Shown: positions 2,308 to 56,730 of the stretch, in pieces | How positions within the stretch are numbered: the first letter of the stretch is position 1 | Layout of the letters: each line of letters starts with the position of its first letter | Origin: an uncultured Verrucomicrobiae bacterium | GTDB lineage: Bacteria > Verrucomicrobiota > Verrucomicrobiia > Palsa-1439 | DNA: 64,000 nt | NCBI GenBank assembly: GCA_963812605.1 | Contig: CAWEWF010000006.1 | Span: forward strand, 288,001-352,000 | Direction of reading: 5' to 3' | Position numbers and translations under genes: made by a program | Notes under the pieces: generated by a model | What the model saw: the letters and a program-made list of their open reading frames with translations, nothing else | Database searches by the model: none | Told to the model about the DNA's origin: nothing

Positions 2308-4398
2308 TTACTGCCGACCTTGCAGCCGCACGAGGGCGTTGCTCGCCGCGGTAAAATCCGGTTGAAGTTGGAGGACCCGTTTGTATTGTTCGATCGCTTC
2401 CGGCATCCTGCCCTGCTGTTCCAAGGCGGTCCCCAGACTGTAGTGCGCCTGAATATCGTCCGGTTGAATCCGCAATACCTGCTCCCAGTGCGCCATCGCC
2501 TCCGGCATCCGCCCCAGACCGGCCAGGACCAGGCCAAGATTGTAATGGGCCTCGGCGTACTCGGGATCGAGACGCAACGCCTCCTCGTAATGCGGAATCG
2601 CCTCTGACGCCCGGTTCTCCAACGCCAGAGCGTTTCCAAAACCCCATTGCGCCGGGGCATACTCGGGATCGACCCGCAATGCTTTTTCTAGCGCTCAATC
2701 GCTTCCGGCGCCCGGTTCTGCATCAGGAAGCATTCCGAAATAGAAGTATGTCCCCGCATAATCGGGATTGATCCGCAACGCTTCCTGGAAATGCCCCATC
2801 GCCTCGGGCACCCGACCCTGTCGCAAAAGCGCGCTCCCGAACCCGAGGTGCGCCTCCAGATAATCCGGCCGGATCCCAGCGCTTCTACATACTCCCCGTC
2901 CGCATTTTCCGTCTGGCCAAGCCTGGCAAGCACCGTTGCCAGATTGAAATGCACTTCCGCGTTGCCGGGATCGATCTGCAAGGCCCGTTCATACTGCCGG
3001 ACCGCGGCTTCAAAGCCGCCCAATTGCGACATCACCAGGCCCAGCGCGTTGTGCGCTGCGCGCTGCCCTGGCGCGATCTTCACATATCGTTCCGCGCAAT
3101 CGAGCGCCTCCCGCCCCGGCCTTGATCCACCAATGACATCACCACCAACCCATTCGGCAGTTCCCAGTCGGGAAACTCCGCCAGCACGGCCCGCCAGAGT
3201 GTTTCGTCGTCGTGCCAAACCAGGATCATCCGGTGGGTGAGCCGTCCGAAACCGCACACGGCGACCACCAGCAGCCCGACCAACGCCGCGCGCGCGCCGT
3301 TCGCCGAATGCCGCCACAACCACACCGCCGCTCCTCCCGCCAACAACAGCAGCGGTAGCATCGCCTGATACGCATAGCGCGGGGCCATGGCCTGCGAACC
3401 GCCCTGCATTGGCCCGGACACGGGAAGAATCATCATGGCGTACGCCGCGCAGCCCACCACCAGCGCCGGCGTCTGACGCCAACGCCACACCGCCACGAAA
3501 GCGATGGTCCCGACGCTGAGCACTGATAGCAAAATCGGCCATTGCTCAAGGGAAAGTCCCGACGGCAACGGATAGAATGGCGACAGGTGCGCCGCCAGAG
3601 AAGCTTCGCCGGTAAAACGCCAGGTTCTCGAACATCAACAGCACGCGTTGTGTCGCCGGTAACGCTTTCATCGGTACCATCGGGCCGTAAACCGCCAGCC
3701 GGTGATCATCGTCGCCGCCACCACCAGGATTCCCAGCCCGAGCAACGGGATTTTCTCAATCAACAGTTGGCGCCAACCAGCCTCCTGGTGCCGCCGCAGC
3801 GGAAAGTAATCAATCGCCAGCATCGTCAGCGGCAGCGACACCGCAATCGGCTGGCTCACCACCGCCCCGGCATACAGCGCCCACACCAGCCACCGCCGCG
3901 CGCCCGCCACATACGCCCAGACACTGCCGATGCCGAACGTCGCGCATAACAAATGCGTGCGCCCGGAATCCACGCCACCGTCTCCACTTGCAACGGATGA
4001 ACCGCGAACACGACAGAGACACCGCACGCTGTCGCCAGCCGCTCGCCCGTTGTCAACGAGGTCGCGCCCAATAGCGTCCACGCCAGTCCGAACACAAGTA
4101 CAGCGTTGACCGCATGCAAAACCACGTTGGTCAGATGATGCCCGGCCGCCTTCTTCCGCCAAAGCTGGTAGTCAAGCGACCGTGAAAGGCGCGCCAACGG
4201 TTGGTAGTATGGTTGCGCGGATGTGAACGCCCAGTGCACGGCTCCCCAGCTAAGACCGTCCCACCGGATCGCTTGATGCAGATTTTCCCAGTCGTCTCCC
4301 CGGAGAAATTCGCCATCAAGGCTCGGGCGGTACAGGCAGAAAGTGGCCGCAAATATCACCAGCCCCAATCCAAGCAACCTCGTGCGGCTTTCGTTCAT
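2308..4398 (-). CDS. TMTC-like GT-C glycosyltransferase with C-terminal TPR repeats (multiple frameshifts)
   Basis: GDD motif, YQPL..LS..LD, GHHLTNVVLH, FAVHPLQVETVAWI and WHDDETLW, then TPR repeats (AEAHYNLG, AHYSLGTAL) spread over several frames. Confidence 0.75.
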
Positions 4399-5453: not shown

Positions 5454-6077
5454 CTACGGCTCCGCCACCAACACGCTGTCATTGGGATCGTCATTCGTGC
5501 CCGCCGCCGACGGCAGACTGTTCTCCCAAGCCACATGCCCGTCATTGAAAAGCACATGCCCGCCGGCATCCTTGTGGGGCGCGGTAGGGGAGACGCTGGT
5601 TGACCATTTCGCGCCTTTCGTGTACCCCGCCGCGGTCACGGACTTGCCCATCCGATCCATCGCGATGATCGAATCCGGCTGGTCCTCCCAGACCAGGCCA
5701 ACCGAATACGAATAGCTGATCGCCATGCTGGACGCCGAATTCGTCAGCGGATAACTGGCCTGCATCTTCGCCGCGCTGTCACTCGGGCACGTGAAAATCT
5801 TCGCCGAAGTGATTACATTGCTCAACAGATTGAACGAGCCCGCCAACGTGGGGCCGCTGGCGAGGTCTTGGGGCATCCGACCGTTGTAACCGTCCGCGTA
5901 CATCGCGATGCCCAGGCCGATTTGCTTGAGGTTGTTCAGGCAGGCCGCCCGATGCGCCTTTTCGCGGGCCGCGCCGAGCGCGGGCAGCAGCATCGCCGCC
6001 AGAATCCCAATGATCGCGATGACCACCAACAGTTCGATGAGGGTGAACCCGGCGCTGTCTCTCGTGGAACGTTTCAT
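5454..6077 (-). CDS. Prepilin-type N-terminal cleavage/methylation protein with H-X9-DG domain (DUF1559-like)
   Basis: [49 protein letters not shown]. Confidence 0.9.
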
Positions 6078-6212
6078 AGCTCGGTCCTCCGTACGGTTGT
6101 TCGAGGACTGCATGCCCGCGCCTGCGTAACCTTACGCCGCCATACCTCGCGAAGCACGTAAACACCCTGTAAAATAGCGCGTGTGGATGAGCAGAACCCA
6201 TCTCATAAATAG

Positions 6213-6400
6213 TGGTGGGACAGGCCTCTGTGCCTGTCAAAACCTATTGCCACAGGCCCCGAAAGCTTTCGGGGTGCCACCAAAGGTTTATGGGACTAGT
6301 GGTGCGACACGCTTCATTTGCAGGGTCGTTGGTAGGGACGGCTCGCCGAGCCGTCCGCGATTCCGCGCTGGCGCGGCGCGGTGGGCCACCGCGCTCCACC
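6213..6400. repeat. Cluster of GTGG/GTAG-tagged REP-like palindrome pairs
   Basis: TGGTGGGACAGGC...GTGCCACCA (6213-6282; related copies at 34331-34478, 43221, 55667) and GGTAGGGACGGC...CTCCACC (about 6331-6400). Confidence 0.75.
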
Positions 6401-8972: not shown

Positions 8973-10430
8973 TCACCACGTATATCTCACCGTATACGTC
9001 ACCACCTGCTCGCCGTCTTTGTCCACCTTCACGGGAAAATGAATCGTGTTGGAGTCGTACTTCGTCCATTTCTGGTTCGACTCGGTGATCTCCCAGTTGT
9101 TCCAGCGGTAGAGGGTTTCCTTAACGAGGACTTCGACCGGCTCGGTCTTGTGGTTGCGGACGCGGATCTCGAAGCTCTCGGTAATGACGTGCCGGCCCGC
9201 ATCTACGTGAAAGTCCGTGCGTTTGCGTTCGCCGACGATGTCGAATGCGTCGCCGAGGTGCAGCTTGACGGTCTCATCCTTCGGCGTGTGGTCGATCTCG
9301 TCCTCGCCGATGAACTCCAGCGAGCCGTCGGCTTCATCGCGCTTATAGAGCCGCATCTTGCCCTTCGGCAGCGCCATGCCCATGTTGTTCTCCTTGGAAT
9401 TCTTCACCTCGATGACCACGTTGACCTTCTTATTGCCTTCTTCGCTGCCGTAGTTGGCATCCTCGTTCAATCCGCCGTAGAACCGGTACTGCGGCGCGCC
9501 GTCATAAAGAAAAACCTTCTTCACCGGCACGTCCGCCGCCTTCAGTAACTCGATCTGCTTGGTCTGGTTTTGCGCCACGGTTGCAGGGCGACCCAGCGTG
9601 TAGAGGTGATATTCAAAGAACGCCTTCTCCGCGAAACCCGGTTCCTTCGCTCTCGCGCCCGCGAACATCGCCACCGGCCCGCTTGTCTCCACCGCCGGCG
9701 CCACACGCCGCACGTCTCCTGCCATCAACTTCAGTTTCGCGTCTTTGTACGTCGCGCCCGACTGATTATTGATCGTGACCCAACCGCCGAGATCGAGTTT
9801 GGTGTCGTTGGGATTCAACGTGGCGTTGTAGTCCGCCTGCCAGGTGATGCCTGCGGTTTGATACGCCACTTCGATGAGTTGCTGTCCGACTTTTTCCGTC
9901 GCGAGCTTCCAAACCAGCGTCGGCTTGGTGATCAATCCTTCCGGCAGCGCGCCAAACTGGATGTCCTTCACGTTGTCGCCGCGTTGCACCATCACGATCT
10001 CCGCCTTCTCGCCCTCCTGCCGAATCACCAACTGGTTCGCATCGAAGCTCAAGAGACTGCCCGAATACCGCGAACCATCCTTCGTCAACACGGCAATCTG
10101 CTTGTCGATGTACTTTTCCAGAAGCTTGTCGGCGGACACCAGATCGTACTCGTAATTCTGCTCCAGCACCGTTGCGTCCGGGTCGGTGAGCGATTTGAAT
10201 TGTACGCTGGTCCCATCGATCTGCGACGCCACATCATCAAAACGGATCGTGCCCGTCTTTTCTTTGACGTCCACATTGCGTTTCTCGCGCACCACGCCGA
10301 AATTCTGGTTGTAGATCGTCAGCGCAATGCCCTCGCTGTCGGTTGTAGCCGCCGCCGTCCCGGCGGCCGGTGCGTTGGCGGCGACGAACGCGAACGCCAG
10401 TGGAATCATCGTCAGGCTGCGTAGCTTCAT
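8973..10430 (-). CDS. DUF4139 domain-containing secreted protein
   Basis: LTIYNQNFGVVRE, EQNYEYDL, WQADY, YHLYTL, FIGEDEIDHTP. Confidence 0.9.
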   Translation of the reverse strand: MKLRSLTMIPLAFAFVAANAPAAGTAAATTDSEGIALTIYNQNFGVVREKRNVDVKEKTGTIRFDDVASQIDGTSVQFKSLTDPDATVLEQNYEYDLVSADKLLEKYIDKQIAVLTKDGSRYSGSLLSFDANQLVIRQEGEKAEIVMVQRGDNVKDIQFGALPEGLITKPTLVWKLATEKVGQQLIEVAYQTAGITWQADYNATLNPNDTKLDLGGWVTINNQSGATYKDAKLKLMAGDVRRVAPAVETSGPVAMFAGARAKEPGFAEKAFFEYHLYTLGRPATVAQNQTKQIELLKAADVPVKKVFLYDGAPQYRFYGGLNEDANYGSEEGNKKVNVVIEVKNSKENNMGMALPKGKMRLYKRDEADGSLEFIGEDEIDHTPKDETVKLHLGDAFDIVGERKRTDFHVDAGRHVITESFEIRVRNHKTEPVEVLVKETLYRWNNWEITESNQKWTKYDSNTIHFPVKVDKDGEQVVTYTVRYTW

Positions 10431-10527
10431 AACAGTTCCTCCGTGGATGTCCGACACCGCCATCCTACAAGAGTTCCCCGCCGGGTGCGATATTTTCAGG
10501 AAAACTTTCCAAATGAGCTGGACTGCC

Positions 10528-10542
10528 TATAATGCGCGCATG
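10528..10542 (+). promoter_or_regulatory. Putative leaderless promoter (-10 TATAAT 6 nt before ATG)
   Basis: TATAAT-GCGCGC-ATG with no SD sequence. Confidence 0.6.
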
Positions 10543-13500
10543 GCTTCCTGGAAATACGATGTCATTATCGTGGGAGCGGGTCCCGCCGGTATCACGGCGG
10601 CCATCGCGCTGGCGAAGGCGCAAATCCCCGTGCTCGTCATCGAGGCGGGCGTGTTCCCCGGCGCGGAAAACTGGTCGGGCGCGGTCTATTTTACGGAAAA
10701 CCTCGCGCAGCCCGATGTCCTCGGCGAACAGGCCGTCCGCGATTCCGCCTACGAACGTCCCGTCACCAAGCGCGGCTTCTACATTTATAACGGTCATTCG
10801 CTCGTTGGCCTCAATTATCGCAATCCCGCTACTTTCGCCAACTGCTACACCGTCCTTCGCCCCACGTACGATCATTATCTGGCCGAACTCGCGAAGTCCT
10901 TCGGCGCGGAGATCCTCACGGAAACCACAGTCGACGGCCTGCTTCGCGATGATAGCGGCCACATCATTGGCGTCCATACCGATCGCGGCTCGATTCACGC
11001 CGATGTTGTGTTCCTCGCCGAGGGCGACGCGTCGCAACTTGTCACGAAAGAAGGTTACGAGCGCAACGTCGAACCCGGCGCGCCGCATTTCCTGCAAGGC
11101 ATCAAGGAAGTCATCGAGGTCGATCCCGATTACATCGAGCATACATTCAAGCTGCCGCAAGGTGAAGGCGCGGCGTTTGAAATCCTCCTGCGCAACGGCT
11201 CGATCCACAATCGCACCGCCAATCTCAACATGGGCGGCTTCCTCTACACGAACAAGGCCAGCCTGTCGCTCGGCCTCGTCCTGCCGCTCGATAATCTCAG
11301 TAAAGAATTCGGCGGCGACCACAACCGTCTCATGGAATGGTTCAAAGGCCTGCCCGAAGTCCGCCGCTGGACGAACCACACCCGCTCGTCCGCCTACGGC
11401 GCAAAAATCATTCGCGGCGGCGGCTTCCGCGAGCTGCCGCAACTCGTCGACAACGGCCTCGCCATCGGCGGCGCCGCCACCGGCATCGGCCTCGATTTCC
11501 CCTACCCCAATTTCACCGGCCCCGCCACCGCCATGGGCCGCTTCTTCGCCAACGCCGTCAAGCAGGCCCGCGCCGCCAACAAAACTTTCTCGCGCCCTGT
11601 CCTGGAAGAACTCTACGAGCGCCCGCTGCGCAAGACGCATCACTTCAAGAACGTACAGTTCCTGGAAAAATGGCCGCATTACGTCGAGCATACACGCGTG
11701 TTCTTCGGTCGCGCCGCCGACCTCGCGACCGGCTCGCTCTATATTGCGAGCAACGCCGCACTGCGCCCGCGCCAAAGGCTCTGGCAACTGGCCAAGTTTA
11801 CTCGCGAAACTCTCCCGCTAAAAAACTGGGGCGAGTTTTTCCACGATCTGCGCGAACAGCGCGCCGCCCTGGGTTTGACACAAAAGAATTCTGCGCATGT
11901 GGGAGGGACCTCAGTGTCCCGACCCGAATCAGGCGAAGTGCTCCTGGAATTCCGCGTTGACGGCGAACCGTGCACGGACTTTCTCTGGCCGCTTTCCCGT
12001 TTTTTCCTGAAACTGCCCCAAGCCCTGCCGCTCGCATGCGATCATGTCTACGGCAATGACGCAACGCCGTTGCCCGGGAAGCTCAAGAGCGCCATCTCCG
12101 CGTTGCGTCGCGGTCTCGGCTTGCCCGACCATCTCATTCCTGTCGTCGGCGGCCTTGCGTTGCTGGTGTTGATGCCCATTCAATGGATCTGCGAACTGAT
12201 CTACCTCGTCATTACACGGCCGTCGCCGGAAAAATTTCTCTCAGGTTTCTTCCAAAAAAATCGCGCTCTCGTCCGCGAACGCCTCAAGCTCGACCCTGAC
12301 GCCGTCAAAATCGAACAGTCGTGGGAAGAGAAGCTGTCCCTCATCCGTTACTTTTCCGAGGACCACTCGCATATCAAGATGTTCCGCCCTGAAAATTTCG
12401 AGAACCGCGCGAAGATCGCGGAGTCCCCGCTCTGGCACGTCTGTCCCGCAAAAGTTTACGAGTGCCACACCGACGACCTCGGCCAGTCCCAACTGGTCGT
12501 GAACTTCGAGAACTGCATCAAGTGCGAGACCTGTTGGCGCTCCGCCCCGAACGACGTTGATTGGACGCGCCAACGCGGCCAGCGATTGATTTTCAGTGCT
12601 CCCACCGAGGTAAATCGAAAACTTCTCGCCATACTGAAGTCCGTCACCCCGACCGAAGCGAAGGGTGTGGCCTCGCAGTCATCCCAGATTCTTCAATTCA
12701 CCCAGTATGAGATGCGCGAGAAGGCTCTCGCTCTCTCCAGCAAACTTCACCAGTTCTGCGACACCGTTTATTCCGGCCCGCGCTATATCGACGCCGGCCG
12801 CACGCGTTGGCTGCAATCGTTGTTGAACGAAGCGCAGGCCATCGCCACCGGGATCAAAAACCCGGGCATCGGCAGGCAGATGGTCCGCATTCTCGGCCAC
12901 GCCAAACGCCGCAAGTTCTTTTGGGCCGAAGCCGACACCCGACAATTGCTGGAACAACTTCCTCCACCTCGTGCTTTGGCGACTGAAACGCCGCAGCAAG
13001 CGCGCGTCGCGATGCTCGCGCGTCTTGACAAACTCTTTTCGAAACAGGCCATCAAGGACCTTGAACACAATCAGCCATTGTCAAAAGAGCAGAAAAATTT
13101 CCTGCATGTGCTTGCCGACACCGTTTCGCCGCCACGCCCGATGATTCTGCGCGAGCTGGCGCGCCGCGATCCGTCACTGGCCGCGCTCGTCTCGGGGATT
13201 TATTCCGCGCAGGTCGCTGCGCGCCCGGAACTCGTCAACCAGCCGTGGATCGGCCTCACTGCCGCGCGCAGCGCCTGGAAGGAATTCATCCCGGAGCAGA
13301 CGCCGACGTTGCCGCAAGTTGCCGCCGACGTTTGCGCCATCGCCCTGGGCGCGGGCGAGATGTTGTTGGAACGCTGTCGGCAACATGCGACCAGTCGCGT
13401 CCAGTTTCCCGGACTCTTCAAGGACGAAGACGGCCACGACGGCATCGCCAAGTTCGGGTCCGTGAAGAAACTGCTGAGCGAAATGGAAGCGCAGGTGTAC

Positions 13501-16500
13501 CTCCTGGAGGCGCTGTTAGATGTTGTAGGGCAAGCGGCCCGCTTGCCAAATACGACGGCAGGCGATGCGCCTGCCCTACAAAACGACGCCGCTGCTTTGG
13601 TGAAAATTCTGGCGAGCACGGCGTTCGGTCCCGACTCCGGCAGTCTCGCCTATAACGCCGGCCAAATCTTCGGCGGCACCGCCTATAGCGAAGACGACGT
13701 GCTGTCAAAATTCTACCGCGACAGCGTCTGTTTCTCGCACATGCTGATCGATGATGGGGAGTTGAAACGGCAGCTTGGTCCAGACGCGGAGGCAAAACTG
13801 CGCCGTTTCGCCGTCGAAGCTGTCAAGCAACACGCCATTGATCCGACGGAACTCGAGGCAGAGATTGTAAAATACTTCGTGGCCCACCAGGACGCGCCAC
13901 AGCCCGCTTCAGGGCTCGGCATCCAGATCATCGAGCGGGGTTACATCGAAGCGCCACTCGAACGACCGCCAGCCTTCAATTATCGCGAGTCGCTGAAGAC
14001 CGAACAGGAATATGACTACGGCGATTTCCTCGTAAAACCGTTCGATGCAAACGCCTGGCGGTTCACGCCCGAAATGCTGCAGGCGGACACCGAGTTGCGG
14101 GCCTATTACGATGAGCTTTATCAGTATTTCACCGAGAAGTTCTGGAATGCCCGCTTCGACGGCCTGCCGTACTACCGACTCGTTGAAAAACTGCACATGA
14201 TTCCGCTCGCCGACGTCCGCGACATGATCGCGCGCGGCTTCATGCGCATGTATATCCCGACGGAATTCGGCGGCCAAGGTTTGCTCAAGGCCCACTACTA
14301 CGTCCTCTGCCCGCTCTCGATGCGTTACGCCGACCCGTCCTACGCGCTGACCATCATGGCCCATTCGAGCATCGGCACCACGCCTATCCTGCTCGGCCTC
14401 AACCAGGATTTGCCGCGCGCGAAGGAAGACCTGCAGCAGTTCCTCTCTAACCAATCTCAAATCGAAAATCTAAAATCGGAAATCGCCCGCATTCTCCGAA
14501 TGCTGGACTCACCGGGAGCCCTCAAGGTGAAAAAAGTCTTCACCGCCTTGGGCGAACAAGTGAAGACAACATCGGCAAAAAACCGATGCTGCGGGCCATC
14601 GCCAGCGAATTCCTCGCCCACTTCATGGACGCCGGCCGCGCCGGTTTGCGCACCGACCTCGTCGCTTTCAAAAGCGAGTTGCAGCAGTCACTGGCGACGT
14701 TGGACACGCTTCGCCCGCGCGCCGAAGCGGTCATCGCCGAACTGGACCGCCGCGCCGAGGCCCACAAACTGTTCCTGCGGCTTATCTCGGCGGGCCAGAT
14801 TAGCGCGTTTGCGTTGACCGAACCGAACGCCGGGAGCGATTCCGGCGGCGTCCAGACCCGGGCGGAACTGAAAAAAGCCGAGGTGCTCACCGACGCCGAC
14901 GGTGTGAAGTACTTCCTGCTTGGAAAGGATCGCAAAAACATCATCGATGCCGCGACGATCGACCTGACCAAGATCGATTACAGCGAGTACGACTACAAGA
15001 CCGATGACCCGGTGAAATTCCGTTACTACCAGCACAACGGGAAGCGCATTCCCATTCACGACATCGCCCAGGTCCGCCGCGACGGCGACAAGGAATTCTA
15101 CGAGTACTACGAGGTCAACGGCGCCAAAATGTGGATCACCAACGGCCACGTGGCCGGCGTCTTTTGCCTCTACGCCCGCACGAAGGAAGGCCCAACGGGT
15201 TTCATGGTGGACCGACACGCCGAGGGCCTCATCGTCGGCAAGGACGAGGAAAAAATGGGCCAGCGCGGCTCGCCCACGAACGAACTCGGCCTCACCAGCG
15301 TCCGCGTCCCCCGCGAGAACATCATCGGCATCGAGGGCCGGGGACAGGTCAACGCGCTGGAGACGTTGAACGTCGGCCGCCTCGGCCTCTGTGTCAGCGC
15401 GGTATCGATGATGACAAAAATTTTCGAGCAGACCCACACCTTCATCAAAGAGCACTATCTGGAAAAGAACCCCCATGCCTTTGCGATGCTCGGTCCCATG
15501 GCTGCCGAGCTGTACGCCACCGAATCACTCGCCTACGAACTCATCGGCCGCGCCGACCACCACGGCACAAAATCCGTCCGGACCGAATCGGCCATCGGCA
15601 AATACTACGCCAGCGAGGCCCTGCATCGGACCATCCGCTCCGCCGAGAAAATCATGGGCATCGAGGGTTGCACCCAGATGCACGAATTGGAAAAGCACCG
15701 CCGCGACGCCCGCGTCCTCAACATCTACGAGGGCACCAATGAAGTGCAACGTTTTCTCATCCTTCGCGACCTCATTGATCATGTGTTACCACAATGGCGG
15801 AAGAGCGAGACAGGGTTCAATGCCGGTGGTTTGAAAGGTCCTGCGCACGGAAGGCTGGCGGATGCGAAGAATCTTTTGGTGCGCGCTGTTAGTCGCGCCG
15901 CAGATGCGTTCGGCCCCAGGTGTGGCAGAACGCCGATTTCCAGCCGACGATGTTTAAGCTGGTGGACATCGCAGGCTACATCAAAGTGATGGATTCGACG
16001 GCGTGGCGAACACACTGGCTGGACACCCAGACGCACGACGTTGATCGTCAATCCTTCGCTCACTTTGCCACGGAGGCGTACACCGAACATGCGTGGCGTG
16101 AAATCGAGCGCCTTCACGAAGAATTCGAGCGCGACCTACTCCTCCTCAAGCAAGGCCTCTACCCACCCGACATCCGCGTCGCGCAATTGGCATTGCAAGC
16201 CCAAGAGGAACACAGTGAAGAACCGCGCCCACAACCACCGCACAAGGTCACCGGGCCATTACACGTACTAGTTGTCTTGAATATCGTCCCGATTCTCTCG
16301 CCGCGTCCGCGCATCGTGAATGGCGAACTGCTGGAGACACATTTCGATATTGATGCCGCGAGTCGCACGGCCCTGGAGCGCGCCCTCGAACTGAAATTCG
16401 CCTCCGAAAAAGTTAGCGTCACGGCCATTGCGGTTGCGCCGGGTGACGCGACGGAATCCTTGCGCCGCGCCCTAGCGCTCGGCGCTAACGGCGCGGCGTT

Positions 16501-18046
16501 AATCAAAACCACTGATCTTCCCGACAACCCGCACGACAGCGCCCGATTGGTGGCCGACCTGATGGGCCAGAAACAACTGCCGTGCGATCTCGTCCTTTGT
16601 GGTGACGCGATCATGGCCGCCGTGCTGGCAGGCAACCTGGGCGCGTCCCATTTCTCCGGGGTGAAGGAATTCGTCGTCAATGGTGACCAAACGACAATCC
16701 ACCTCCTGAAGCCGGTGGCATCCATTACCAACGACGGCCCCGTCGTCCTCGCAATGACGGAAGGCGAAACCGACCTGGATTTCCATGTCGACGATTACTT
16801 CAAGGCGCTGAACAAACCGCTGGAAGTCATCGACGCCCTGCAACTCGCCACTGCGCCACGTCCTGGCTTGCGGTATCAATTGCCGGAGAAGCGGCGGTGG
16901 AAGAGAAGTTTGAATCGACACCGGGTCAGTCGCCGCCCTCGTGCGAAAGATTGCCGGGGTCGAAACCGTCGCGCAAGGCAGCGGGTCGTTCGCGGGCAAA
17001 GTGGAATCCGCCGCGAAGGAAAAGCTGCCGGGACGCGATGCCGCCGTGTTCCTGGCGACACCCGAAAAACTGGAAGGCCTCGAAACCGCCGCCGCCTGCG
17101 CCGTGGCATTGGGATTGCCATTCCACGTGCTGGTGCTGGGAGATTTCGACAAGCGCGCCGCGCGGTCGGTCGCGGCCCGCGTGAACGCCCGCTCGATCTA
17201 CTTCGCAAGCAGCCCGCATCTGTCGGACGCGACGCCGGCCGCGTTGCTCGCGGCGCTTCAAACGATGTGGAAAGACCTGTTGCCCGCCGTGTTGGCCTCC
17301 GGGACTGGGCCAATGAATTGCTCGCGCAATTTGCCCGCACCTTCCCGCGCGTCCAGGCTTGCTACAACGTCGCGGATGTTGCGCCAGCAAACGGGGCGCT
17401 TGAACTCGTGATGCCGGCGTTCGGCGGCAAGGTGCAACGCGTGGCCACCGTCAGCGAGATCACCACGCATCCGCTGGTGATGACCGTCGCGACAGGCGCG
17501 AGCGGAGAGCCGAAAGTTGAAAACGACAAACAAGTCTCTCTCGTGTCCCTGGAATTCGAGTACGACCCGGAAACTGACGACCTGGCGCGCGCGTTGCGGG
17601 CGGCACACGAGGAAACCAGTGTAAAATCCATCGCCGATGCCGAGTTCATCATCGACGTCGGTTACGCGGTGCGCAACCAGGAGAACTTCGACCTGGTGAT
17701 CGCCCCGCTCAAGAAGCGGCTCGAGGAAATCGGCCTGAAGAATGTCCTGCTCGGCGGGACCCGCAAAGTCGTCGAAGAATTGAAACTGCTCGCGCCCGAT
17801 CAACAAATCGGCCAGACCGGCACCGCCGTCAACCCCCGGATGATTATCTCCATCGGCGTCAGCGGCGCGCCGCAGCACGTGGACTATATCGGCGACCGGG
17901 CCACCATCATCGCATTCAATAAGGATGCCGACGCACCGTTGATGACCTTGAACAAACGACGAGCGCGCCCGAAGGTCGTGCCCGTGATCGGAGACTTGTT
18001 TGAGACGGTGCCGCGTTTCACGGCGGCGCTGAAGCCGCACCGTTGA
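10540..18046 (+). CDS. Giant fusion FixC/ETF-QO + TM + FixX ferredoxin + 2 acyl-CoA dehydrogenase modules + ETF-beta + ETF-alpha (~2500 aa; about 5 apparent single-base deletions)
   Basis: GAGPAG and GGFLYTNK (FixC); CPAKVY...CIKCETC (FixX); AFALTEPNAGSD, NGAKMWITNG, KMGQRGS and IYEGTNEVQR (ACAD); ALERALELK...LRRALALGA (ETFb); QIGQTG...IGVSGAPQH...FNKDADAP (ETFa). Frame breaks fall inside domains or linkers with no stop/RBS restart. Confidence 0.8.
13523..13581. repeat. GTAG-type REP palindrome pair inserted in frame in the fusion gene
   Basis: TTGTAGGGCAAGCGGCCCGCTTGCC...GGCAGGCGATGCGCCTGCCCTACAA, same family as 56135-56198; encodes VVGQAARLPNTTAGDAPALQ. Confidence 0.85.
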
Positions 18047-18214: not shown

Positions 18215-19996
18215 ATGAACGGCATTCAGGCGAGTGGATCGATCGGGCGTCGCGGGCTTCTGGTATTCTCTGTTCTCGTTTTGGGAACAATCGTCGATTC
18301 ATTCTCGGCAAGGGCCGACACCAATGCGCTGGCTATCATCAATTTGACGGGCGGCATAACCGCCTTCGACGGTAGCGGTGTTACCGTGGGACAAATTGAA
18401 AGCGCCACACCCACGAATCATGTGGATTTCAACAGCGCCAATCTTTCGCAAACACTTTTGAGCGCCACCGCCACGTCTTCTGCCACTAACCATGCCACCG
18501 AGGTTGCCAGCGTGATGGTGAGCACTGGCGTGGTGACGCGCGGCGTCGCCCCCGGGGCCAAGCTTTATTCGATAGGCGCATCTACGGATCCTCAATTCCT
18601 GAATGCATACTGGCTGATCGCCACTCAAGCAGTCGGGAGGGCCAAGGTAATCAATATGAGTTTTGGCTCGGCCACTGTCACCAGGTCCAGTAACACAGCC
18701 AATGGAACGAATTACGTTACCTATACACGCGTGGCCAATCCCGATGGAAACGACGCGGACTCTCAGACAATTGATAATGTCGCGGCTACCACAGGTGCAG
18801 TATTCGTCAAATCCGCCGGTAATAGCGGCGAGGCTGGTACTAACACGGTCACCGCGCCCGGGGCTGCCTACAACATCATCACGGTCGGTGCCGTGAGCAA
18901 CCTGACTGCGAAAACAACATCCGTAGCCGACTTCAGTTCCCGGGGATACCTGGCTAGCGGTCGATCTGCCGTCGATATCGTCGCGGTCGGCGCCGACGTG
19001 GCCATGGCCGGCTTCTATACCAACTCGACTTTCACGCGGACAGTTGTTCAGGTTGTTTCGAACAATGTTGGGGCGCCGGCGATCTACCAAATAGGAAGCA
19101 CTGGTTACTACCCATCCGGTCCCGGGCTCGCCCAAAGCCCGCTTTCCATGGTGGCTACAAGTTCCGGCACGAGTTTTGCCGCTCCCATGGTTTCGGGTGT
19201 CGCGGCACTCCTGGTGGAAGCCGCCGCAACCAACTTTGTGGCGACGCCGAGCACCGTGACCGCCGCTCAGGATCCCCGCACCATCAAGGCCGTCCTGCTG
19301 AATTCAGCGACGAAACTGCCGGGCTGGGGGCAAGGCGCTGTGGCCGGTGGCACGGCTGGCCTCACCGGTATTCTCACGGGCGGGGTCAACGGGGTCACGA
19401 CTGTCCTCCAACCCCTGGATCCCAACCAGGGCGCCGGCTTGCTCAATGCCAATGGAGCCTACCTCCAATTGGCTGCGGGCCGTCAGGGACCTTTGTTCAC
19501 CAATAACAACATTCGGGCCAACGGAAATGTAGGATTGATCGGTTGGGATTTCAACACGGTGGCGTTGTCCTTGAGCAATGTTTACCGGGTAGCCAGTCAG
19601 GCCCAGGGCTCTATGGCTCTGACGCTCGACTGGAATCGAGATGTCACAACGGATGGGGGAACGAACCTGCTGCAAGGCATGGCCAACCTGAACTTGAACC
19701 TCTACACAAGTTCCGACGTTTTATTTACCAACGTGCCGCTGGTCGCCCAATCCATCAGCGGGATCGACAACGTCGAGCACCTGTGGTTCACCAATTTGCC
19801 GTCAGCTTTTTACGAGTTCGGCGTAGGTTACGCCAACTATAATTCCCTGGGGGGCCCCAACGCGCCGACGGTCAACTATGGCATCGCCTGGAACTTCCAG
19901 GCTGTGCCCGAGCCTAGTTCGCTCCTGCTGGTCGGGCTGGGTATCAGCGGCCTGGCATGGCGCGTGAAACGCCGACGAATACCGCCGACGGTCTGA
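18215..19996 (+). CDS. Subtilisin-like S8 peptidase with PEP-CTERM sorting signal
   Basis: NHATEVA, SAGNSG and GTSFAAPMVSG; C-terminal VPEPSS-TM-RVKRRR. Confidence 0.88.
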   Translation: MNGIQASGSIGRRGLLVFSVLVLGTIVDSFSARADTNALAIINLTGGITAFDGSGVTVGQIESATPTNHVDFNSANLSQTLLSATATSSATNHATEVASVMVSTGVVTRGVAPGAKLYSIGASTDPQFLNAYWLIATQAVGRAKVINMSFGSATVTRSSNTANGTNYVTYTRVANPDGNDADSQTIDNVAATTGAVFVKSAGNSGEAGTNTVTAPGAAYNIITVGAVSNLTAKTTSVADFSSRGYLASGRSAVDIVAVGADVAMAGFYTNSTFTRTVVQVVSNNVGAPAIYQIGSTGYYPSGPGLAQSPLSMVATSSGTSFAAPMVSGVAALLVEAAATNFVATPSTVTAAQDPRTIKAVLLNSATKLPGWGQGAVAGGTAGLTGILTGGVNGVTTVLQPLDPNQGAGLLNANGAYLQLAAGRQGPLFTNNNIRANGNVGLIGWDFNTVALSLSNVYRVASQAQGSMALTLDWNRDVTTDGGTNLLQGMANLNLNLYTSSDVLFTNVPLVAQSISGIDNVEHLWFTNLPSAFYEFGVGYANYNSLGGPNAPTVNYGIAWNFQAVPEPSSLLLVGLGISGLAWRVKRRRIPPTV

Positions 19997-20095: not shown

Positions 20096-21088
20096 TTGTT
20101 GCGCTCAAAACGTGGGGTTGACCTTCTATTGATTACGCCAGCGGATATTAGCGTCACCCTTCCGGTGAGTGTGGCCATCAATCGCGTGAAGCTGCTGTTG
20201 TTCGAGCCTTTCGATCTTGGCAAATGGTTTGCCATCGGCTTCTGCGCCTGGCTCGCCCATCTGGGAGAGACGGGATTCCAGGCAAATTACAATGTCGGCG
20301 CGCCCCGCGGCGGAGCGGGAAAAGGCGTCCACGAGGGATTCGAGCATGCGCGGGCCTATGTGTTGGACAATCTCGGCTGGATCCTGCCGCTCGCGGCGGC
20401 CTTGGTGTTTGTCGGCTTCGCGTTCTGGGTGCTCCTGACCTGGCTGCGCAGCCGGGGCAATTTCATGTTCCTTCACTGCGTGGCCTTTGACAAGGCAGAG
20501 GTCCGCGGGCCCTGGCACAAATTCGCTCGCGCAGGAAAGAGCTTGTTCCAGTTCCGTCTGGCGCTGGGGTTGGTCGGGATGATTCCAGTGTTACCGTTGC
20601 TGGTGCTCGCAGCCATGATGGTCATACGGATGATTGACCACGGCCAGCCTGAATTTCACAGCATTCTGCTGCTGATCGGGGTCGTGTTGATGCTCTTCGG
20701 GGTGGGGATGGTCTTTTTCGTGGTCGCCAAGCTCACCACGGATTTCGTGGTGCCGATCATGTTCCTGCGAGGCATCACCTGCCTGGAGTCATGGAAGGAA
20801 TTGCTCGGCCTGATCTCGGTTCAGGTTCCCAACTTTCTGTTGTATCTCCTGTTCCAAATCGTACTGGGGTTCGCGACGGGTGTGCTCGTGCTCATCGCCG
20901 TCCTCGTAACCTGCTGCATCGCCGGTTGCTTGATGATCATTCCGTATCTGGGCACCGTGCTGTTGCTGCCAATTCTGGTATTCAAGCGCTCCTATTCGCT
21001 CCACTACCTGGCGCAGTATGGACAAGCATATGACGTGTTCCCCCCGCAACTACCGCCGCAACTCGGCGTGACGCCACCACTATCATAG
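20096..21088 (+). CDS. Conserved hypothetical multi-pass membrane protein (start uncertain)
   Basis: LFEPFDLGKWFAIGFCAWLA, multiple TMs, VTCCIAGCL. Confidence 0.7.
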   Translation: MLRSKRGVDLLLITPADISVTLPVSVAINRVKLLLFEPFDLGKWFAIGFCAWLAHLGETGFQANYNVGAPRGGAGKGVHEGFEHARAYVLDNLGWILPLAAALVFVGFAFWVLLTWLRSRGNFMFLHCVAFDKAEVRGPWHKFARAGKSLFQFRLALGLVGMIPVLPLLVLAAMMVIRMIDHGQPEFHSILLLIGVVLMLFGVGMVFFVVAKLTTDFVVPIMFLRGITCLESWKELLGLISVQVPNFLLYLLFQIVLGFATGVLVLIAVLVTCCIAGCLMIIPYLGTVLLLPILVFKRSYSLHYLAQYGQAYDVFPPQLPPQLGVTPPLS

Positions 21089-23912: not shown

Positions 23913-24749
23913 ATGAAAGAGTATTTGGATTTGGTAAGGCTCGTGCTTGACCACGGCAAACTCAAAAAGAGCCGCACGGGGATCGACACGATTTCCTGGT
24001 TCGGCGCCCACTACTCGGTCGATCTGTCCCGAGGGTTTCCGTTGCTGACCACCAAGGAAGTCAACTGGACGGCGGTGTTGCGCGAATTGCTCTGGTATCT
24101 CTCCGGCGAAGATCACATACGCAACCTCCGCCAGCACACCAAGATTTGGGATGCTTGGGCCGATGCCGACGGCAATCTCGAAACCGCCTACGGCCGTTAT
24201 TGGCGGCGGTTCCCCCACCCCTACCAGGAGCCGGCGGTCAATGGCAGGTGCGCGAGGTGGATCAAATTCAATTCGTTATCGACACGCTGCGAAAAGAACC
24301 CTACAGCCGTCGCATGGTCGTCACCGCCTGGAACCGGGCAACGCTGAGACCAGCAAGCTTCCGCCCTGCCATTACAGCTTCGTGTTCAACGTGCAGGGGG
24401 ACCGGCTCAACTGCCACCTCACGCAGCGTTCAGGCGACATCGCCCTTGGCATCCCCTTCAACCTGGCCTGCTACGCCGCGCTCACGCAAATGATCGCGCA
24501 GGAGGTTGCTTGCGGGTCGGGTTCTTCAGCCACACCATCGTCGACGCCCACATCTACACTGCCGCGCGGGACAGCGGCCTTGCCGAATACGACCACGTAC
24601 CGGGGCTGCGCGAACAACTCAAGCGCGAGCCGTGCGCCCTCCCCCACCTGGTGATCGCCAAGAAGCCGTTTGACCAATTGCAATTCGAGGACTTTCAACT
24701 GGTTGACTATCATCCGCAGCCGAAGATCAAATTCAAAGTGGCTGTATGA
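23913..24749 (+). CDS. thyA: Thymidylate synthase (frameshifted)
   Basis: RTGIDT, FPLLTTK, ELLWYLSG, LPPCH, QRSGDIALGIPFN, DAHIY. Confidence 0.93.
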
Positions 24750-25231
24750 AGATTGCTCTCATCGTCGCTATCAGCGAAGACGGTACGATAGGCGACAAAG
24801 GCAAAATCCCCTGGCATATCCGCGAAGACCTGCAACGCTTCAAGCGACTCACCATGGGCCACCCCATTATCATGGGACGAAAAACCTATGAATCCATCGG
24901 CAAACCACTTCCCGGTCGCATTAACATCGTCCTCACCCAGAACCCAAACTTCACAGCGCCACCCGGAGTGCTCACGTTTGCCAGCCTCGAAGCCGCTCTC
25001 GACCACTGCGGCAAGCAGAATGCCGAGTCCGTCTTCGTCATCGGCGGCAGCAAGGTCTATCAACTAGCCCTTCCGCTGGCCGACAAGTTGTTTGTGACCG
25101 AAGTGCACCAGCACGTCAACGGCGACACCAAGTTTCCCGACTATGATCGGCACGAATGGAAAGAAACCGCTCGGGAAAAAGGGCCGGAGTGCTGGTTCGT
25201 TGAATATGTACGAAGTCGCGCGACAACGTAG
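24746..25231 (+). CDS. folA: Dihydrofolate reductase
   Basis: IPWHIREDLQRFK, IMGRKTYESIGKPLPGR, VIGG; ATGA overlap with thyA. Confidence 0.95.
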   Translation: MKIALIVAISEDGTIGDKGKIPWHIREDLQRFKRLTMGHPIIMGRKTYESIGKPLPGRINIVLTQNPNFTAPPGVLTFASLEAALDHCGKQNAESVFVIGGSKVYQLALPLADKLFVTEVHQHVNGDTKFPDYDRHEWKETAREKGPECWFVEYVRSRATT

Positions 25232-25285
25232 TACAAATCCCCTGTTGAAAAGGCAGCGAGTGGCGCGTATAAGTTTCACAGATAC

Positions 25286-26612
25286 ATGAAACCGACCGAT
25301 CTCCGAGGTATCCTCCATTACGTCCCGCAATTCCGGGAACGGGTCTTCCTCATTGCGGTCGATGGCTCAGTCGTGGCGGATGAGAATTTCGGCAACCTGC
25401 TGCTCGATATTGCCGTCTTGCGCAGCCTGAACATCCATATCGTGCTGGTCCACGGCGCGGGCCATCAGATTAAGCTGTTGTCGGAACGCCTGCACGAGCC
25501 GATCTCCAACCATGACGGCACAGGCGTGACTGATGCCGCGACGCTCAGCATCGCCATCACCGCCGCCACGAATGTCACCCACGAAATTCTCGAGGGCCTG
25601 AAACTTAACGACATTCGCGCAGCGCAGACCAACGCAATTGAATCCATTCCGCTGGGGATCATCAAGGGCATCGACCAACAGCATACGGGCAGGGTGCATC
25701 AAATCGATCTCGTCGTTGCACACCCTCCTCGACAAGGGCATCGTGCCTGTCATCCCCCCGCTCGAATTCGACGGCAACGGGCACACCTATCGGTTGAACT
25801 CCGACGCTGTGGCCGTTGAGTTGGCGCGCGAATTGGGCGCGGTGAAATTAATGTTCATCGGCAGCACCAACGGCCTGGAAATCGACGGCAAGCTGGTTTC
25901 GCAAATGTCCGTGAAGGAACTCGAACTCGCCTTGAAAACTTCCGCCGACAAGTTTGTGCCGGAAATGTTGTCCAAGGCCCAGCATGCGCTGCGCGCCTGC
26001 AGGCCGGCGTCCCCCGCGTCCACGTCATCAACGGCAAGGTGGACGAAGGGTTGCTCGCCGAGTTTTTTCCAACGAGGGCATCGGCACGTTGATTTATGCG
26101 AATGAATATCAGGCAGTTCGCAAGGCGCTGCGAAAGGACATCCGCCACAAATGCGTTAATCAAGCCTTGCATCCAGGGCGAAATTGGTCAAGCGCACCCG
26201 CGCGGCATTGACAAGCGCCTCAACGAATATTACATTTTCGAGATCGACAATAATATCGTCGGCCTCGTGGCGCTGCATTCCCAGCCCGACTCGAAAAAGG
26301 GCGAGCTCGCCAGCCTGGCCGTCAGCCCGGCGCACGAACACCACGGCATCGGCACAAACTGATAGTTCGTCGAGAACAACGCGAGAGAAAAACTCGCCGA
26401 GAGGATCTTCTGTCTTTCGACGCAGGCGTTCACGTTCTTCCAGCACAAAGTGGGCTACGCGGAAGGCACGCGGAGGATTGCCGCCCGCGCGGCGCGCGCA
26501 ATATGAACAAAGCGGCCGGAATTCCAAGGTGTTGATCAAGAGCCTGGTGCCGACGTCCTCTTCCTCGGGCATCCCGCCGCGCGAACCGGCGCTCACACCC
26601 ACGGCCGGCTGA
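25286..26612 (+). CDS. argA: Amino-acid N-acetyltransferase / N-acetylglutamate synthase (frameshifted)
   Basis: AAK-like domain (LVHGAG, NSDAVA, FSNEGIGT) followed by a GNAT domain (GELASLAV, R...Y..SGRNSKV). Confidence 0.85.
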
Positions 26613-26680
26613 ACGTCATTCGCGAACCGGAATGCGTGTTCGATCGCCCTTGTCCACGCTCGCCCCAACAACCACTGGCT

Positions 26681-27169
26681 TTAGGCATCCACCTCGTCGC
26701 GCGAGGCGGCGAAGACTTTCTCGGACAGTTGATTCCATTCGCTAAGGATTTGTTGCTGCGAAGTTTCCAGGCGCGCCAGCATCACGAGATCGCGGTTGAC
26801 TTCATTCAGGCGGGAGGCAATCCGACCCGTCACTTCGCCGCGTTGCGTCTGGAGTTCCTTGAGTTGGCCGGCGAACACGACCAGTCGCTTTTGGGCGGGG
26901 ACATCGAGGGCGCTCGCCCCGGTTTCTTCCGCAGACCCGGCCGCTTCTTTGGACGGCGTGGCCCGCGCGACGGATGCGGACGGCTCGGAGCGGGCGGTCG
27001 ATCGCGGCGGCACGATGACATTCGTGCGGCATTGCGGGCAATCGACGATCATTCCCTCGGCGCTCACGTCCACCACGAGACTCTTCCCACAGGAGGGACA
27101 ATCGAAAAGTATATCCTGGTTCGTCACCACAGCTCCGTCCGCGTTGGCTTTCGTTGGTTGCTTGTTCAT
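26681..27169 (-). CDS. Zinc-ribbon plus coiled-coil hypothetical protein
   Basis: CPSCG...CPQC and a C-terminal helical segment. Confidence 0.7.
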   Translation of the reverse strand: MNKQPTKANADGAVVTNQDILFDCPSCGKSLVVDVSAEGMIVDCPQCRTNVIVPPRSTARSEPSASVARATPSKEAAGSAEETGASALDVPAQKRLVVFAGQLKELQTQRGEVTGRIASRLNEVNRDLVMLARLETSQQQILSEWNQLSEKVFAASRDEVDA

Positions 27170-27248
27170 GCAGCACCTGTTCCACCAGAAGGATGCCGCC
27201 AGTACTCAAGCTTTGCAAGTCCGAACATTCCTGCTAGCATCCGCCGCC

Positions 27249-27979
27249 GTGCCAACCAAGCGTCCGCATGTACGGGTCGGTTGCTGCGGCTTTGCGATGG
27301 CGCAGGAGAAATACTTCCAGGCTTTCTCCTGCGTGGAGATCGACTCCAGCTTTTATCAATTGCCCAAGGTCGAAACGGCGGCCCGCTGGCGCGCCGCGGC
27401 CCCACCCGATTTTGAGTTCGCCATGAAGGCGTGGCAGGTCATTACCCATCGCGCCACCAGCCCCACCTACCAGCGCACGCGCCTCGGCGCCGGCGATCGC
27501 GAGCACTGCGGCCACTTCGGGTTCAACCCGACAATCCGCTGGGCCTGGAACGAAACCTTCACCGTGGCCAGGGCGCTCGATGCGCGCCTCGTGCTCTTCC
27601 AGTGCTCGCAAAGTTTCCGCCCGACAAAAGAAAACGTCGCCAATCTGCGGCGCTTCTTCGAGCGTGCCAAGCGCGGCAAGTTTTACATGGGCTGGGAACC
27701 ACGCGGTGAGTGGGATGGGGAGTTGATCGCTTCGTTGTGCCGGGAACTCGACTTGATCCCCGTGCTCGACCCATTCAAACCGAACCGCTTCCGTTGGCAG
27801 GGTCCGCTACTTTCGCCTTCACGGGGTCACGGGTACGCGTCACCGCTATACCAGCGAGGAATGGGCCGGTGCGGACCATCTGCGCGGGACGGCAGCCGAC
27901 CTACTGCCTGTTCAACAACCTGGCCATGACCGATGACGGACAGCGCTTTCAGAAGCTACTGGGCCCATTGGCCCGCTGA
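27249..27979 (+). CDS. DUF72 family protein (frameshifted near 3' end)
   Basis: VGCCGF, VEIDSSFY, FAMKAWQVITH, LFQC..SF, WEPRG, YCLFNN. Confidence 0.85.
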
Positions 27980-55534: not shown

Positions 55535-56730
55535 GTGGAAGATGACCCCGTTTTGCTTCGTGAGATTCGGCGTGAAATAGAGGCACGCGACGGACGAATC
55601 ACGTTCGCGCGGTTCATGGAACTGGCGCTGTATCACCCGCGATATGGATACTACACCAAAGCCCTCGGTGGCACGGGCGTCCCTGCCCGTGCGGACACAG
55701 GCACGGAGGCCTGTGCCACCATTCATGGGGCGCTTTCCAAGCGCGAACGCATCGGCAAACAGGGCGATTATTTCACCAGCGTGAGCGTGGGGTCGCTGTT
55801 TGGGAAGATCTTGGCGAAGCAGTTTGTGAAGTTCCGCGAGGAACTGGGCAATCCACCGGAGTTTGCTGTCGTGGAGTTTGGCGGGTACCGGGGCCAATTG
55901 CGCGCCGATGTCCTCGCGGCGGCGCCCGATTTGTCCTACCGCATTGTCGAAGCGGGCGATCCCCTGCCCGACTCGATTGTCGGCTGCGTGTTCTCGAACG
56001 AGTTCCTCGATGCGTTGCCGGTCCATCTGGTGCAGGTGAAAGATGGAACGTGGCAGGAGGTGTACGTCAAGACGGCGTCCCCTCACCCGAACCCTCTCCC
56101 ACAAGGGGAGAGGGGCAAAGTGAAGAGACGGCGTTTGTAGGGCAGGCGTCCCGCTTGCCATATTCCCAACAACGGCAGGCGGGCCGCCTGCCCTACAATA
56201 ATGATGGTGATTTCGTTGAGGTATTAGGCCCGCTTTCCACGCCGCGGCTTGCCGAGCAGCTACGCGATCTGCCCCTTCAATACATGGAAGGCTACCGCTC
56301 GGAGGTGAATTTGCAGGCGCTCAATTGGCTGGCGGACGTGGCGCGGCGGTTGAAACGCGGTTGGATCGTCACCATCGATTACGGTTACGAGCGCAACGAT
56401 TATTTCGCGCCGCACCGCGGCGAGGGCACGTTGCTTTGCTATCACCAGCACGTGAAGAGCGCGAATCCGTACGCAAACATCGGCGAACAGGACATCACGG
56501 CGCATGTCGAGTTCACTTCCTTGATGGAACACGGCAAGACGCTTGGGCTTGAAACTGTTTTGTTTACCGACCAGTCGCACTACCTGTTGCAGATTGGAGA
56601 GTCGGAGATTGCCGGGATTGTCGAACGCACCGCCGGTCAGCCGAGCAAGGAGCGCGCAGCCATCCATCAACTCATCCATCCTGAATTGATGGGGCGCACG
56701 TTCAAGGTGCTGGTGCAGAAGAAGGGATAG
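55535..56730 (+). CDS. NDUFAF7/MidA-family SAM-dependent methyltransferase (repeat insertions; frameshift near 56100-56140)
   Basis: FARFMELALYHP..GYY, GDYFTS, SNEFLDALPV, IDYG, GEQDITAHVEF, MGRTFKVL. Confidence 0.88.
55667..55720. repeat. GTGG REP pair inserted in frame in the methyltransferase
   Basis: GGTGGCACGGGCGTCCCTGCCCGTG...CACAGGCACGGAGGCCTGTGCCACC, 54 bp = 18 codons. Confidence 0.88.
56079..56198. repeat. Two further palindromic elements inside the methyltransferase gene
   Basis: CCCCTCACCCGAACCCTCTCCC..GGGGAGAGGGG (56079-56115) and TTGTAGGGCAGGC...GCCTGCCCTACAA (56135-56198). Confidence 0.8.

Follow-up and report, generated by a model that had tools for sequence, protein, structure and literature searches.

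A single-chain fusion of quinone-reductase, acyl-CoA dehydrogenase and electron-transfer flavoprotein modules in an uncultured Verrucomicrobiae bacterium: a likely acyl-CoA:menaquinone oxidoreductase

We analysed a 64,000-nt stretch of DNA (hereafter the window) on contig C6 (CAWEWF010000006.1) of G000, a 4.17-Mb, 90% complete assembly of an uncultured Verrucomicrobiae bacterium. Three consecutive forward-strand open reading frames (ORFs) in different frames, 10327-14817, 14586-15989 and 15920-18046, together carry modules of acyl-CoA dehydrogenase (ACAD), electron-transfer flavoprotein (ETF, subunits EtfA and EtfB) and ETF-quinone oxidoreductase (ETF-QO). Across them the order of Pfam domains is flavin adenine dinucleotide (FAD) Rossmann/DAO, Fer4_ETF_QO, a weak ACAD_C, ACAD_N, ACAD_M, ACAD_C, ETF and ETF_alpha; the FixC, FixX-like, ACAD, ACAD, EtfB and EtfA modules described in an initial annotation of the window are thus all found on one strand. 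We consider it likely that the three ORFs are pieces of one real gene for a single-chain flavo-iron-sulphur enzyme of ~275 kDa (the megaenzyme), corresponding to what are usually four or five separate proteins, and that this enzyme works as set out below. Positions are those of the window, and residue numbers are those of P0122, the protein encoded by an intact allele on a second contig, C12. The gene and its modules are as follows.

10540..18046, forward strand: whole gene; the intact allele has 2,503 codons and a stop codon, and five bases are missing in the window; start placed by homology to residue 1 of the relative P0005
10540..11733, forward strand: FixC/ETF-QO-type FAD domain, aa 1-398 (Pfam; 7koe_C, E 3.5e-41; GxGxxG at aa 12-17)
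11734..12324, forward strand: family-specific insert between the FixC core and the Fe-S domain, aa 399-595
12130..12216, forward strand: hydrophobic stretch LIPVVGGLALLVLMPIQWICELIYLVIT, aa 531-559 (Kyte-Doolittle peak 2.15), a likely membrane anchor
12325..12609, forward strand: FixX/ETF-QO-type [4Fe-4S] domain, aa 596-690 (PF05187; Cys635, Cys659, Cys662, Cys665)
12907..13746, forward strand: ACAD1, degenerate, without catalytic Glu, aa ~790-1069 (PF00441, E 7.8e-5; hhalign, E 1.5e-13)
13523..13581, forward strand: palindromic repeat insertion in ACAD1, in frame, 18 extra codons (alignment and repeat search)
14011..15794, forward strand: ACAD2, catalytic, aa ~1158-1752 (Pfam; hhalign, E 2.8e-65; IYEGTNE at 15723-15743)
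15795..16237, forward strand: helical extension after ACAD2, aa 1753-1900, partly VLCAD-like (the 3owa_A match reaches aa 1858)
16250..16837, forward strand: EtfB-like module without the loop after DLVLCG, aa ~1905-2100 (PF01012; hhalign against a stand-alone EtfB)
17061..17554, forward strand: EtfA domain I, aa ~2176-2340 (Met2293 where bifurcating ETFs carry Arg)
17555..18043, forward strand: EtfA domain II, FAD-binding, aa ~2341-2503 (PF00766; five PDB EtfA alignments)

Five single missing bases separate the deposited sequence from an open frame. When P0005, a relative of 2,478 aa that is 87% identical, was aligned to the window with tblastn, the match was colinear over 10540-18037 with five -1 frame shifts of one missing base each; as annotated, the middle of the third ORF translates to Arg-rich nonsense. 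The copy of 10300-18100 on contig C12 is 99.56% identical; apart from 29 substitutions, the sole differences are five one-base insertions, which follow 14567, 15913, 16891, 16924 and 17305. It forms a single open frame, which yields the 2,503-residue P0122 from the Met at 10540. The initial annotation had placed the breaks near 14575, 15918, 16890, 16928 and 17303 and had supposed that one added base would repair each; the C12 alignment puts every one of them within ~8 nt of those positions, and the repair is as supposed. Its remark that several fall at homopolymers applies to 15913 only, in a CCCC run: no other break lies in one, and the first does not fall in the A6 run near 14580. Short contigs from four soil-metagenome runs of one study (depth 2-5), aligned to the gene, put in a base at 14567, 15913 and 17305 and give no cover at 16891 and 16924, so that the short-read check that had been proposed restores the base at all three of the five breaks that are covered. 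The breaks are listed below.

14567..14568, forward strand: break 1, one base missing; G in C12 and also in the short contig of run X4
15913..15914, forward strand: break 2, in a C run, one base missing; A in C12, C in the short contig of run X1, Pro either way
16891..16892, forward strand: break 3, one base missing; C in C12
16924..16925, forward strand: break 4, one base missing; A in C12
17305..17306, forward strand: break 5, one base missing, plus G>T at 17303; C12 and the short contig of run X2 agree

Contig C12 (37,607 bp) is the reverse complement of C6:285441-322995 (window 1-34995; 98.36% identity, 513 mismatches, 88 indel runs) and is probably a strain variant or an alternative consensus. 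Over this 37.6-kb overlap, bases are missing at 67 places in C6 versus 21 in C12. Elsewhere in the window, too, many neighbouring same-strand ORFs overlap in different frames (e.g. 2688-4398, 5454-6240, 24151-26105 and 26636-27929), as would result from one-base indels breaking up other genes of C6. Such split-looking ORFs and the 67 gaps of C6 fit a noisy long-read consensus. The five breaks are errors or strain-level defects of contig C6 that are absent from the organism's gene, at least in the population, and the explanation of the locus as a whole appears likely to us.

Relatives of the megaenzyme are numerous in databases. With the first ORF as query, a word-indexed search gave 118, the best being P0005; 77 of them are single chains of 2,200 residues or more, which makes the fusion real and its parts not always the products of separate genes. 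In an exhaustive HMMER search of aa 430-1200 against 1.84 billion representatives, 174 matches were obtained at E <= 0.001 and 60 at E <= 1e-30; among the 150 matches listed (50%-identity representatives), 34 are at least 2,200 aa long and 85 are fragments of <700 aa. The source names among relatives, all generic, include Verrucomicrobiae, Acidobacteriota, Planctomycetes, Nitrospirota, Gemmatimonadota, Acidiferrobacter, Firestonebacteria and Lentisphaeraceae. The gene is present in 16 of 17 congeneric genomes, in many as an uninterrupted frame of 2,496-2,564 codons, and these frames together with the intact allele on C12 bear out the early suggestion of one gene for ~2500 aa. Among relatives of G041 the gene occurs only in G042, in pieces. 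A locus search with motifs from the family alignment, which are generic ACAD motifs, recovered mostly ordinary ACADs and a single full-length homologue, at locus L001.

No NCBIfam model reaches its cut-off on the megaenzyme, and the database names of its relatives are only 'acyl-CoA dehydrogenase family protein' or 'ETF-quinone oxidoreductase'. We found no description of a fusion with this architecture in the literature, although a listing in supplementary tables would escape such a search, and no characterised protein of this architecture. The claim of novelty is weakened only by the many database entries that already contain the family. The fused enzyme is conserved and apparently unstudied: a real single chain put together from known parts, with a chemistry that is probably ordinary.

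The two ACAD modules differ in what they have kept. ACAD2 aligns to a profile of 41 ordinary ACADs over 367 columns, its N, beta and C domains corresponding to PF02771, PF02770 and PF00441, and it carries family-specific inserts in the N and beta domains. Its PDB matches are 5lnx, ACAD9 and VLCAD; straight-chain ACADs, among them SCAD, VLCAD and ACAD9, are its nearest relatives. The catalytic IYEGT pointed out in the initial annotation is there, as part of an IYEGTNE motif that is invariant in the family alignment. ACAD1 is indeed partial: its confident match to the same profile (hhalign, Prob 98) spans only the last beta-domain strands through the C domain, the three-domain fold is incomplete, and Leu or a gap stands at the position of the catalytic Glu. 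A phmmer search of the ACAD1 region against the PDB gave nothing significant.

The consensus of the C domain of ordinary ACADs (n=77) is YAkeR.QF ... avQi.GG.Gy ... yRDakI..IYEGTNE. Of these motifs, R.QF, Q..GG..Y and YRD are retained in ACAD1, where IYEGTNE is gone, and RRD..IYEGTNE is retained in ACAD2, where R.QF and Q..GG are gone. ACAD1 and ACAD2 hold complementary halves of the FAD and catalytic motifs. In ACAD dimers, the R.QF and Q..GG motifs touch the FAD of the partner subunit. The complementarity supports the notion, already put forward in the first description of the locus, that ACAD1 may act as an intramolecular dimer partner of ACAD2. The same division of labour has been reported for CasC of Rhodococcus jostii RHA1 and the alpha2beta2 steroid ACADs, in which one fold has the catalytic Glu and the other is needed for FAD binding (PMC8399759); we liken them to the megaenzyme by motif pattern. 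In contrast with CasC, ACAD1 is confidently only the end of a beta domain plus a C domain, and the pair is embedded in a far larger chain.

As for the insertion in ACAD1, it consists of 25-nt arms, 80% complementary, around a 9-nt loop, and its 18 codons fall in a variable loop of the protein. Among 29 other rows shown, its residues are found in P0024 only. The 25-nt arm occurs 67 times in the 4.17-Mb assembly (at most two mismatches, both strands), which makes it a dispersed repeat resembling repetitive extragenic palindromic (REP) elements that was inserted in frame. Further copies of the arm lie at window positions 56135 and 56174.

In the quinone-reductase part, the closest solved relative of the FixC domain is FixC of Thermotoga maritima (7koe_C, matching aa 5-398 of the megaenzyme), and matches to the Pfam DAO and FAD_binding families confirm the domain with its N-terminal GxGxxG. 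NCBIfam FixC models score 150-156 bits on it, under their cut-offs of 466-610. The insert that follows has no Pfam or PDB match and 1 invariant column in 197. A hydrophobic segment had been noted at 12130-12213, and we recover it as aa 531-559 (12130-12216), the only strong peak outside the Rossmann and ETF sheet-like stretches; most of the homologues tested share this hydrophobicity, which is weak in the remotest ones. We discarded the idea of a transmembrane helix that links FixC to FixX in a single pass, since the membrane would then stand between the FixC flavin and the cluster. For this reason, the stretch is more likely a re-entrant or monotopic membrane anchor.

The Fe-S domain passes the PF05187 cut-off and can be aligned with EtfX of T. 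maritima (7koe_D, E 5.7e-6) as well as with ETF-QO (2gmh_A, E 0.0077). Its four Cys residues are invariant in 59 rows. The ligands of a second FixX cluster were not found in the alignment with 7koe_D: the positions of the N-terminal C..C...C of EtfX and of its last CP are not Cys here. As only VCPA... plus CxxCxxC is retained, the domain would hold one cluster, in the manner of ETF-QO.

The EtfB-like module was identified by comparison with the stand-alone EtfB of a relative, G019 (hhalign, Prob 96.5, E 7e-10); a phmmer search of the ETF region against the PDB matched no EtfB chain. A 7-residue deletion after DLVLCG relative to that stand-alone EtfB substantiates the earlier impression that the nucleotide-binding motif is missing at this place. 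In EtfB, the loop after DL(I/V)L.G is the AMP or FAD site. The EtfA part matches with Prob 99.2, and its domain II has the expected motifs: PF00766 scores 56-60 bits versus a cut-off of 27, and the domain aligns well to 5ol2_A, 6fah_A, 4kpu_A, 7koe_B and 1efv_A. In G019, which lacks the megaenzyme, the stand-alone EtfB-EtfA pair lies between two CCG-domain/4Fe-4S proteins (L087), and this cluster is a different kind of ETF-linked Fe-S oxidoreductase.

Conservation was assessed over 16 full-length members at 29-87% identity. Invariant columns number 85 of 398 in FixC, 14 of 95 in the Fe-S domain, 17 of 155 in the C part of ACAD1, 88 of 585 in ACAD2, 2 of 145 in the helical extension after ACAD2, 0 of 195 in the EtfB-like module, 0 of 170 in EtfA domain I and 15 of 158 in EtfA domain II. 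The ETF base, i.e. EtfB plus EtfA domain I, has the look of a scaffold in which no ligand site is conserved.

Genomic context links the gene to beta-oxidation. In the source assembly, the megaenzyme gene and its C12 duplicate are the sole matches to ETF_alpha, ETF, Fer4_ETF_QO, ACAD_M and ACAD_C, and contig C5 carries a thiolase gene followed by one for a FadB-type protein with ECH and 3HCDH domains, adjoining an AMP-binding fragment. At L001, which encodes a distant homologue (37% identity), genes for thiolase, FadB and a megaenzyme of 2,716 codons are consecutive and overlapping, and the only ETF_alpha match of that genome is the fused one. Among 41 relatives, the gene is present in 21, of which 20 have no other ETF_alpha. 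FadB-type 3HCDH is found in 20 of these 21 genomes (the one missing it, G010, is 77% complete) versus 4 of the 20 without the gene; among these four, a stand-alone EtfA occurs in two and a canonical ACAD next to FadB in one. The source assembly also has two MqnA/D-family genes, and hence the acceptor is probably menaquinone.

With the integrity of the gene, the identities of its modules, the motif pattern and the phyletic and operon context established, we propose that the megaenzyme is a non-bifurcating acyl-CoA:menaquinone oxidoreductase, which, taken jointly with the gene being intact, we regard as likely. From the sequence we infer the cofactor content (three FAD and one cluster), the electron path, the substrate, the quinone and the topology. 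ACAD2 would oxidise a fatty acyl-CoA at its FAD, with Glu1730 of IYEGTNE as the base. ACAD1, a dead ACAD copy, would pair with ACAD2 like the second subunit of a dimer, its residues holding the FAD of ACAD2 from the other side. EtfA domain II would carry the electron-transfer FAD and swing between ACAD2 and the FixX-like domain, for which EtfB and EtfA domain I might be a mere scaffold with no second nucleotide. Electrons would then pass through the single [4Fe-4S] cluster to the FAD of FixC and on to menaquinone at the membrane, where the hydrophobic stretch would anchor the chain. The megaenzyme, FadA and FadB would complete beta-oxidation, with NADH and ferredoxin uninvolved in the megaenzyme reaction. 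On balance, we lean slightly towards the broader view that a whole lineage of soil bacteria swapped the usual network of numerous ACADs, a diffusible ETF and ETF-QO for one self-contained chain, with an ETF base decayed to a cofactor-free scaffold, a one-FAD ACAD pseudo-heterodimer and a three-polypeptide beta-oxidation with FadA and FadB. Such a chain would be a naturally minimal respiratory dehydrogenase working from acyl-CoA to menaquinone.

A number of observations weigh against this proposal. At the level of the gene, breaks 3 and 4 are repaired by C12 alone, and 13 of the 29 substitutions between C6 and C12 alter a residue, some of which may be errors. The linkage to fadA-fadB is seen in one of the five loci scanned, the neighbours in the window and at L081, L090 and L091 being unrelated, and the phyletic counts overstate independence because the relatives are kin. 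That the megaenzyme contains the sole ACAD is valid only for G000 as assembled. Two members of the genus, G008 and G010, have an extra canonical ACAD, and most relatives, including those without any ETF, encode a divergent ACAD-like protein of 770-790 aa, which we looked for in G000 and did not find. Finally, with potentials of -10 mV for crotonyl-CoA/butyryl-CoA (PMC5861303) and -74 mV for menaquinone (PMC10734219), electron transfer from acyl-CoA to menaquinone is uphill at standard conditions. An oxidised quinone pool and the hydratase would have to pull the forward reaction. An example of the divergent ACAD-like protein is found in relative G007 (L092:1596-3944, reverse strand), with 782 aa, ACAD_N and a partial ACAD_C.

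Given the uphill standard potentials, the reverse direction stays a rival. The chain could be real and serve as a menaquinol:enoyl-CoA reductase, or as a dehydrogenase for amino-acid-derived or other special acyl-CoAs instead of fatty ones, which we regard as unlikely. The transfer from menaquinol to enoyl-CoA is downhill by the same standard potentials, ACAD2 has large family-specific inserts of unassigned role, and in four of the five loci the neighbours have nothing to do with lipid breakdown. Against this, FadB accompanies the gene in 20 of 21 genomes, a fadA-fadB-megaenzyme operon exists at L001, ACAD2 is nearest to straight-chain ACADs, and G000 has no other canonical ACAD to start beta-oxidation.

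It is quite improbable that the megaenzyme is a FixABCX-like bifurcating or confurcating enzyme, working with NADH and ferredoxin or flavodoxin and using the ACAD as an extra entry or exit. The idea has some appeal, as the best structural matches to the FixC, FixX and EtfA parts include EtfABCX of T. maritima (7koe_C, 7koe_D and 7koe_B), a bifurcating enzyme, and the top EtfA matches, 5ol2_A, 6fah_A and 4kpu_A, are bifurcating ETFs. Work on the T. maritima enzyme (PMC10734219) describes Arg140 of the large ETF subunit as crucial, with R140Q and R140M abolishing bifurcation, and places both EtfX clusters on the high-potential path to menaquinone. Where 7koe_B has R140, the megaenzyme has Met2293 in the alignment, and 1 of 36 rows of the family shows Arg there. 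Because this Arg is replaced, the loop of EtfB is lost, no residue is invariant in either EtfB or EtfA domain I and a single, ETF-QO-type cluster is kept, bifurcation by the megaenzyme is unlikely, in line with what had been expected at the outset.

Real frame breaks, which would make the locus of this strain a pseudogene or a set of three genes, are very improbable: the five one-base deletions are present in the deposited contig, those at 16891 and 16924 are without independent short-contig cover, and C12, which differs by 1.6% over 37.6 kb, may be another strain, but there are only one-base deletions at all five sites and no stop or larger lesion, the out-of-frame stretches translate at 78-88% identity to relatives in shifted frames, the shortage of bases in C6 across the overlap is error-like, other ORFs of the window look split in many cases as well, and every one of the three breaks under short-contig cover is repaired.

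The non-bifurcating acyl-CoA:menaquinone oxidoreductase that we favour can be compared with the three-component ACAD-ETF-ETF-QO chain found in mitochondria and numerous bacteria (e.g. MCAD:ETF, 1t9g/2a1t; ETF, 1efv; ETF-QO, 2gmh), whose modules are alike and whose electron path is alike as proposed. Shared features are one [4Fe-4S] cluster with ETF-QO-like Cys residues, the motifs of the EtfA FAD domain and an MCAD-type position of the catalytic Glu. The megaenzyme differs in being a single chain in the order QO, ACAD, ETF, in the deleted nucleotide loop of EtfB and unconserved ETF base, and in having an extra dead ACAD and an extra insert of ~200 aa with a hydrophobic stretch. FixABCX/EtfABCX of T. 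maritima (7koe) is the best sequence match to the FixC and FixX parts, and its clusters lie on the path from the electron-transferring FAD to the quinone-reducing FAD (PMC10734219). That system has four subunits and two clusters, takes NADH as donor and bifurcates, whereas the megaenzyme has one cluster, lacks the critical Arg and has the ACAD built in.

The known precedents are partial fusions. The Sulfolobus acidocaldarius SaETF has EtfB then EtfA on one chain, as in the megaenzyme; unlike the latter, it is bifurcating and has neither ACAD nor QO (PMC12042025). A citing sentence in the same article mentions a Fusobacterium nucleatum butyryl-CoA enzyme in which an ACAD is fused to EtfA domain II; as described there, it lacks the EtfB, EtfA domain I and quinone reductase of the megaenzyme. 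Of note, several loci of Clostridia and Fusobacteria (L006, L007, L008, L018, L026, L029, L040 and others) show, within single matches, an ACAD, matching the query from 1504 on, joined directly to EtfA domain II (to 2476), over ~1.2-1.4 kb; they represent shorter fusions of an ACAD with this domain.

If the proposal is true, the route from fatty acyl-CoA to the quinone pool could be studied in one polypeptide at fixed stoichiometry. The megaenzyme would also be a cryo-electron microscopy object for the swing of the ETF head domain, which is transient in systems of separate proteins, and it appears attractive as a structural model. It would further show that ETF can do without its AMP or second-FAD site. 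With generic gene names and no NCBIfam model at cut-off, metabolic reconstructions may overlook beta-oxidation in these uncultured but abundant soil bacteria, or score ETF as absent. The locus further illustrates how long-read indels cut giant genes into false pieces.

Upstream of the gene we found one weak promoter-like element.

10506..10533, forward strand: promoter-like TTTCCA-16-TATAAT, ending 6 nt before the ATG; 4 such sites were found versus 2.1 expected by chance

The megaenzyme gene has no Shine-Dalgarno sequence, and the next gene (18215) carries AGGAGG; the megaenzyme mRNA may be leaderless, as this weak evidence hints. An overlapping ORF of 429 aa (10532-11821) was rejected as a gene: its translation is rich in Arg, Ser and Pro, and it is another frame of the conserved FixC region. 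Downstream of the megaenzyme gene come a gene for a subtilase with a PEP-CTERM sorting signal (18215-19996) and then a DUF7544 gene (20096-21088). At L081, in a relative, the DUF7544 gene directly follows the megaenzyme gene, and DUF4139 is found upstream in both L081 and the window.

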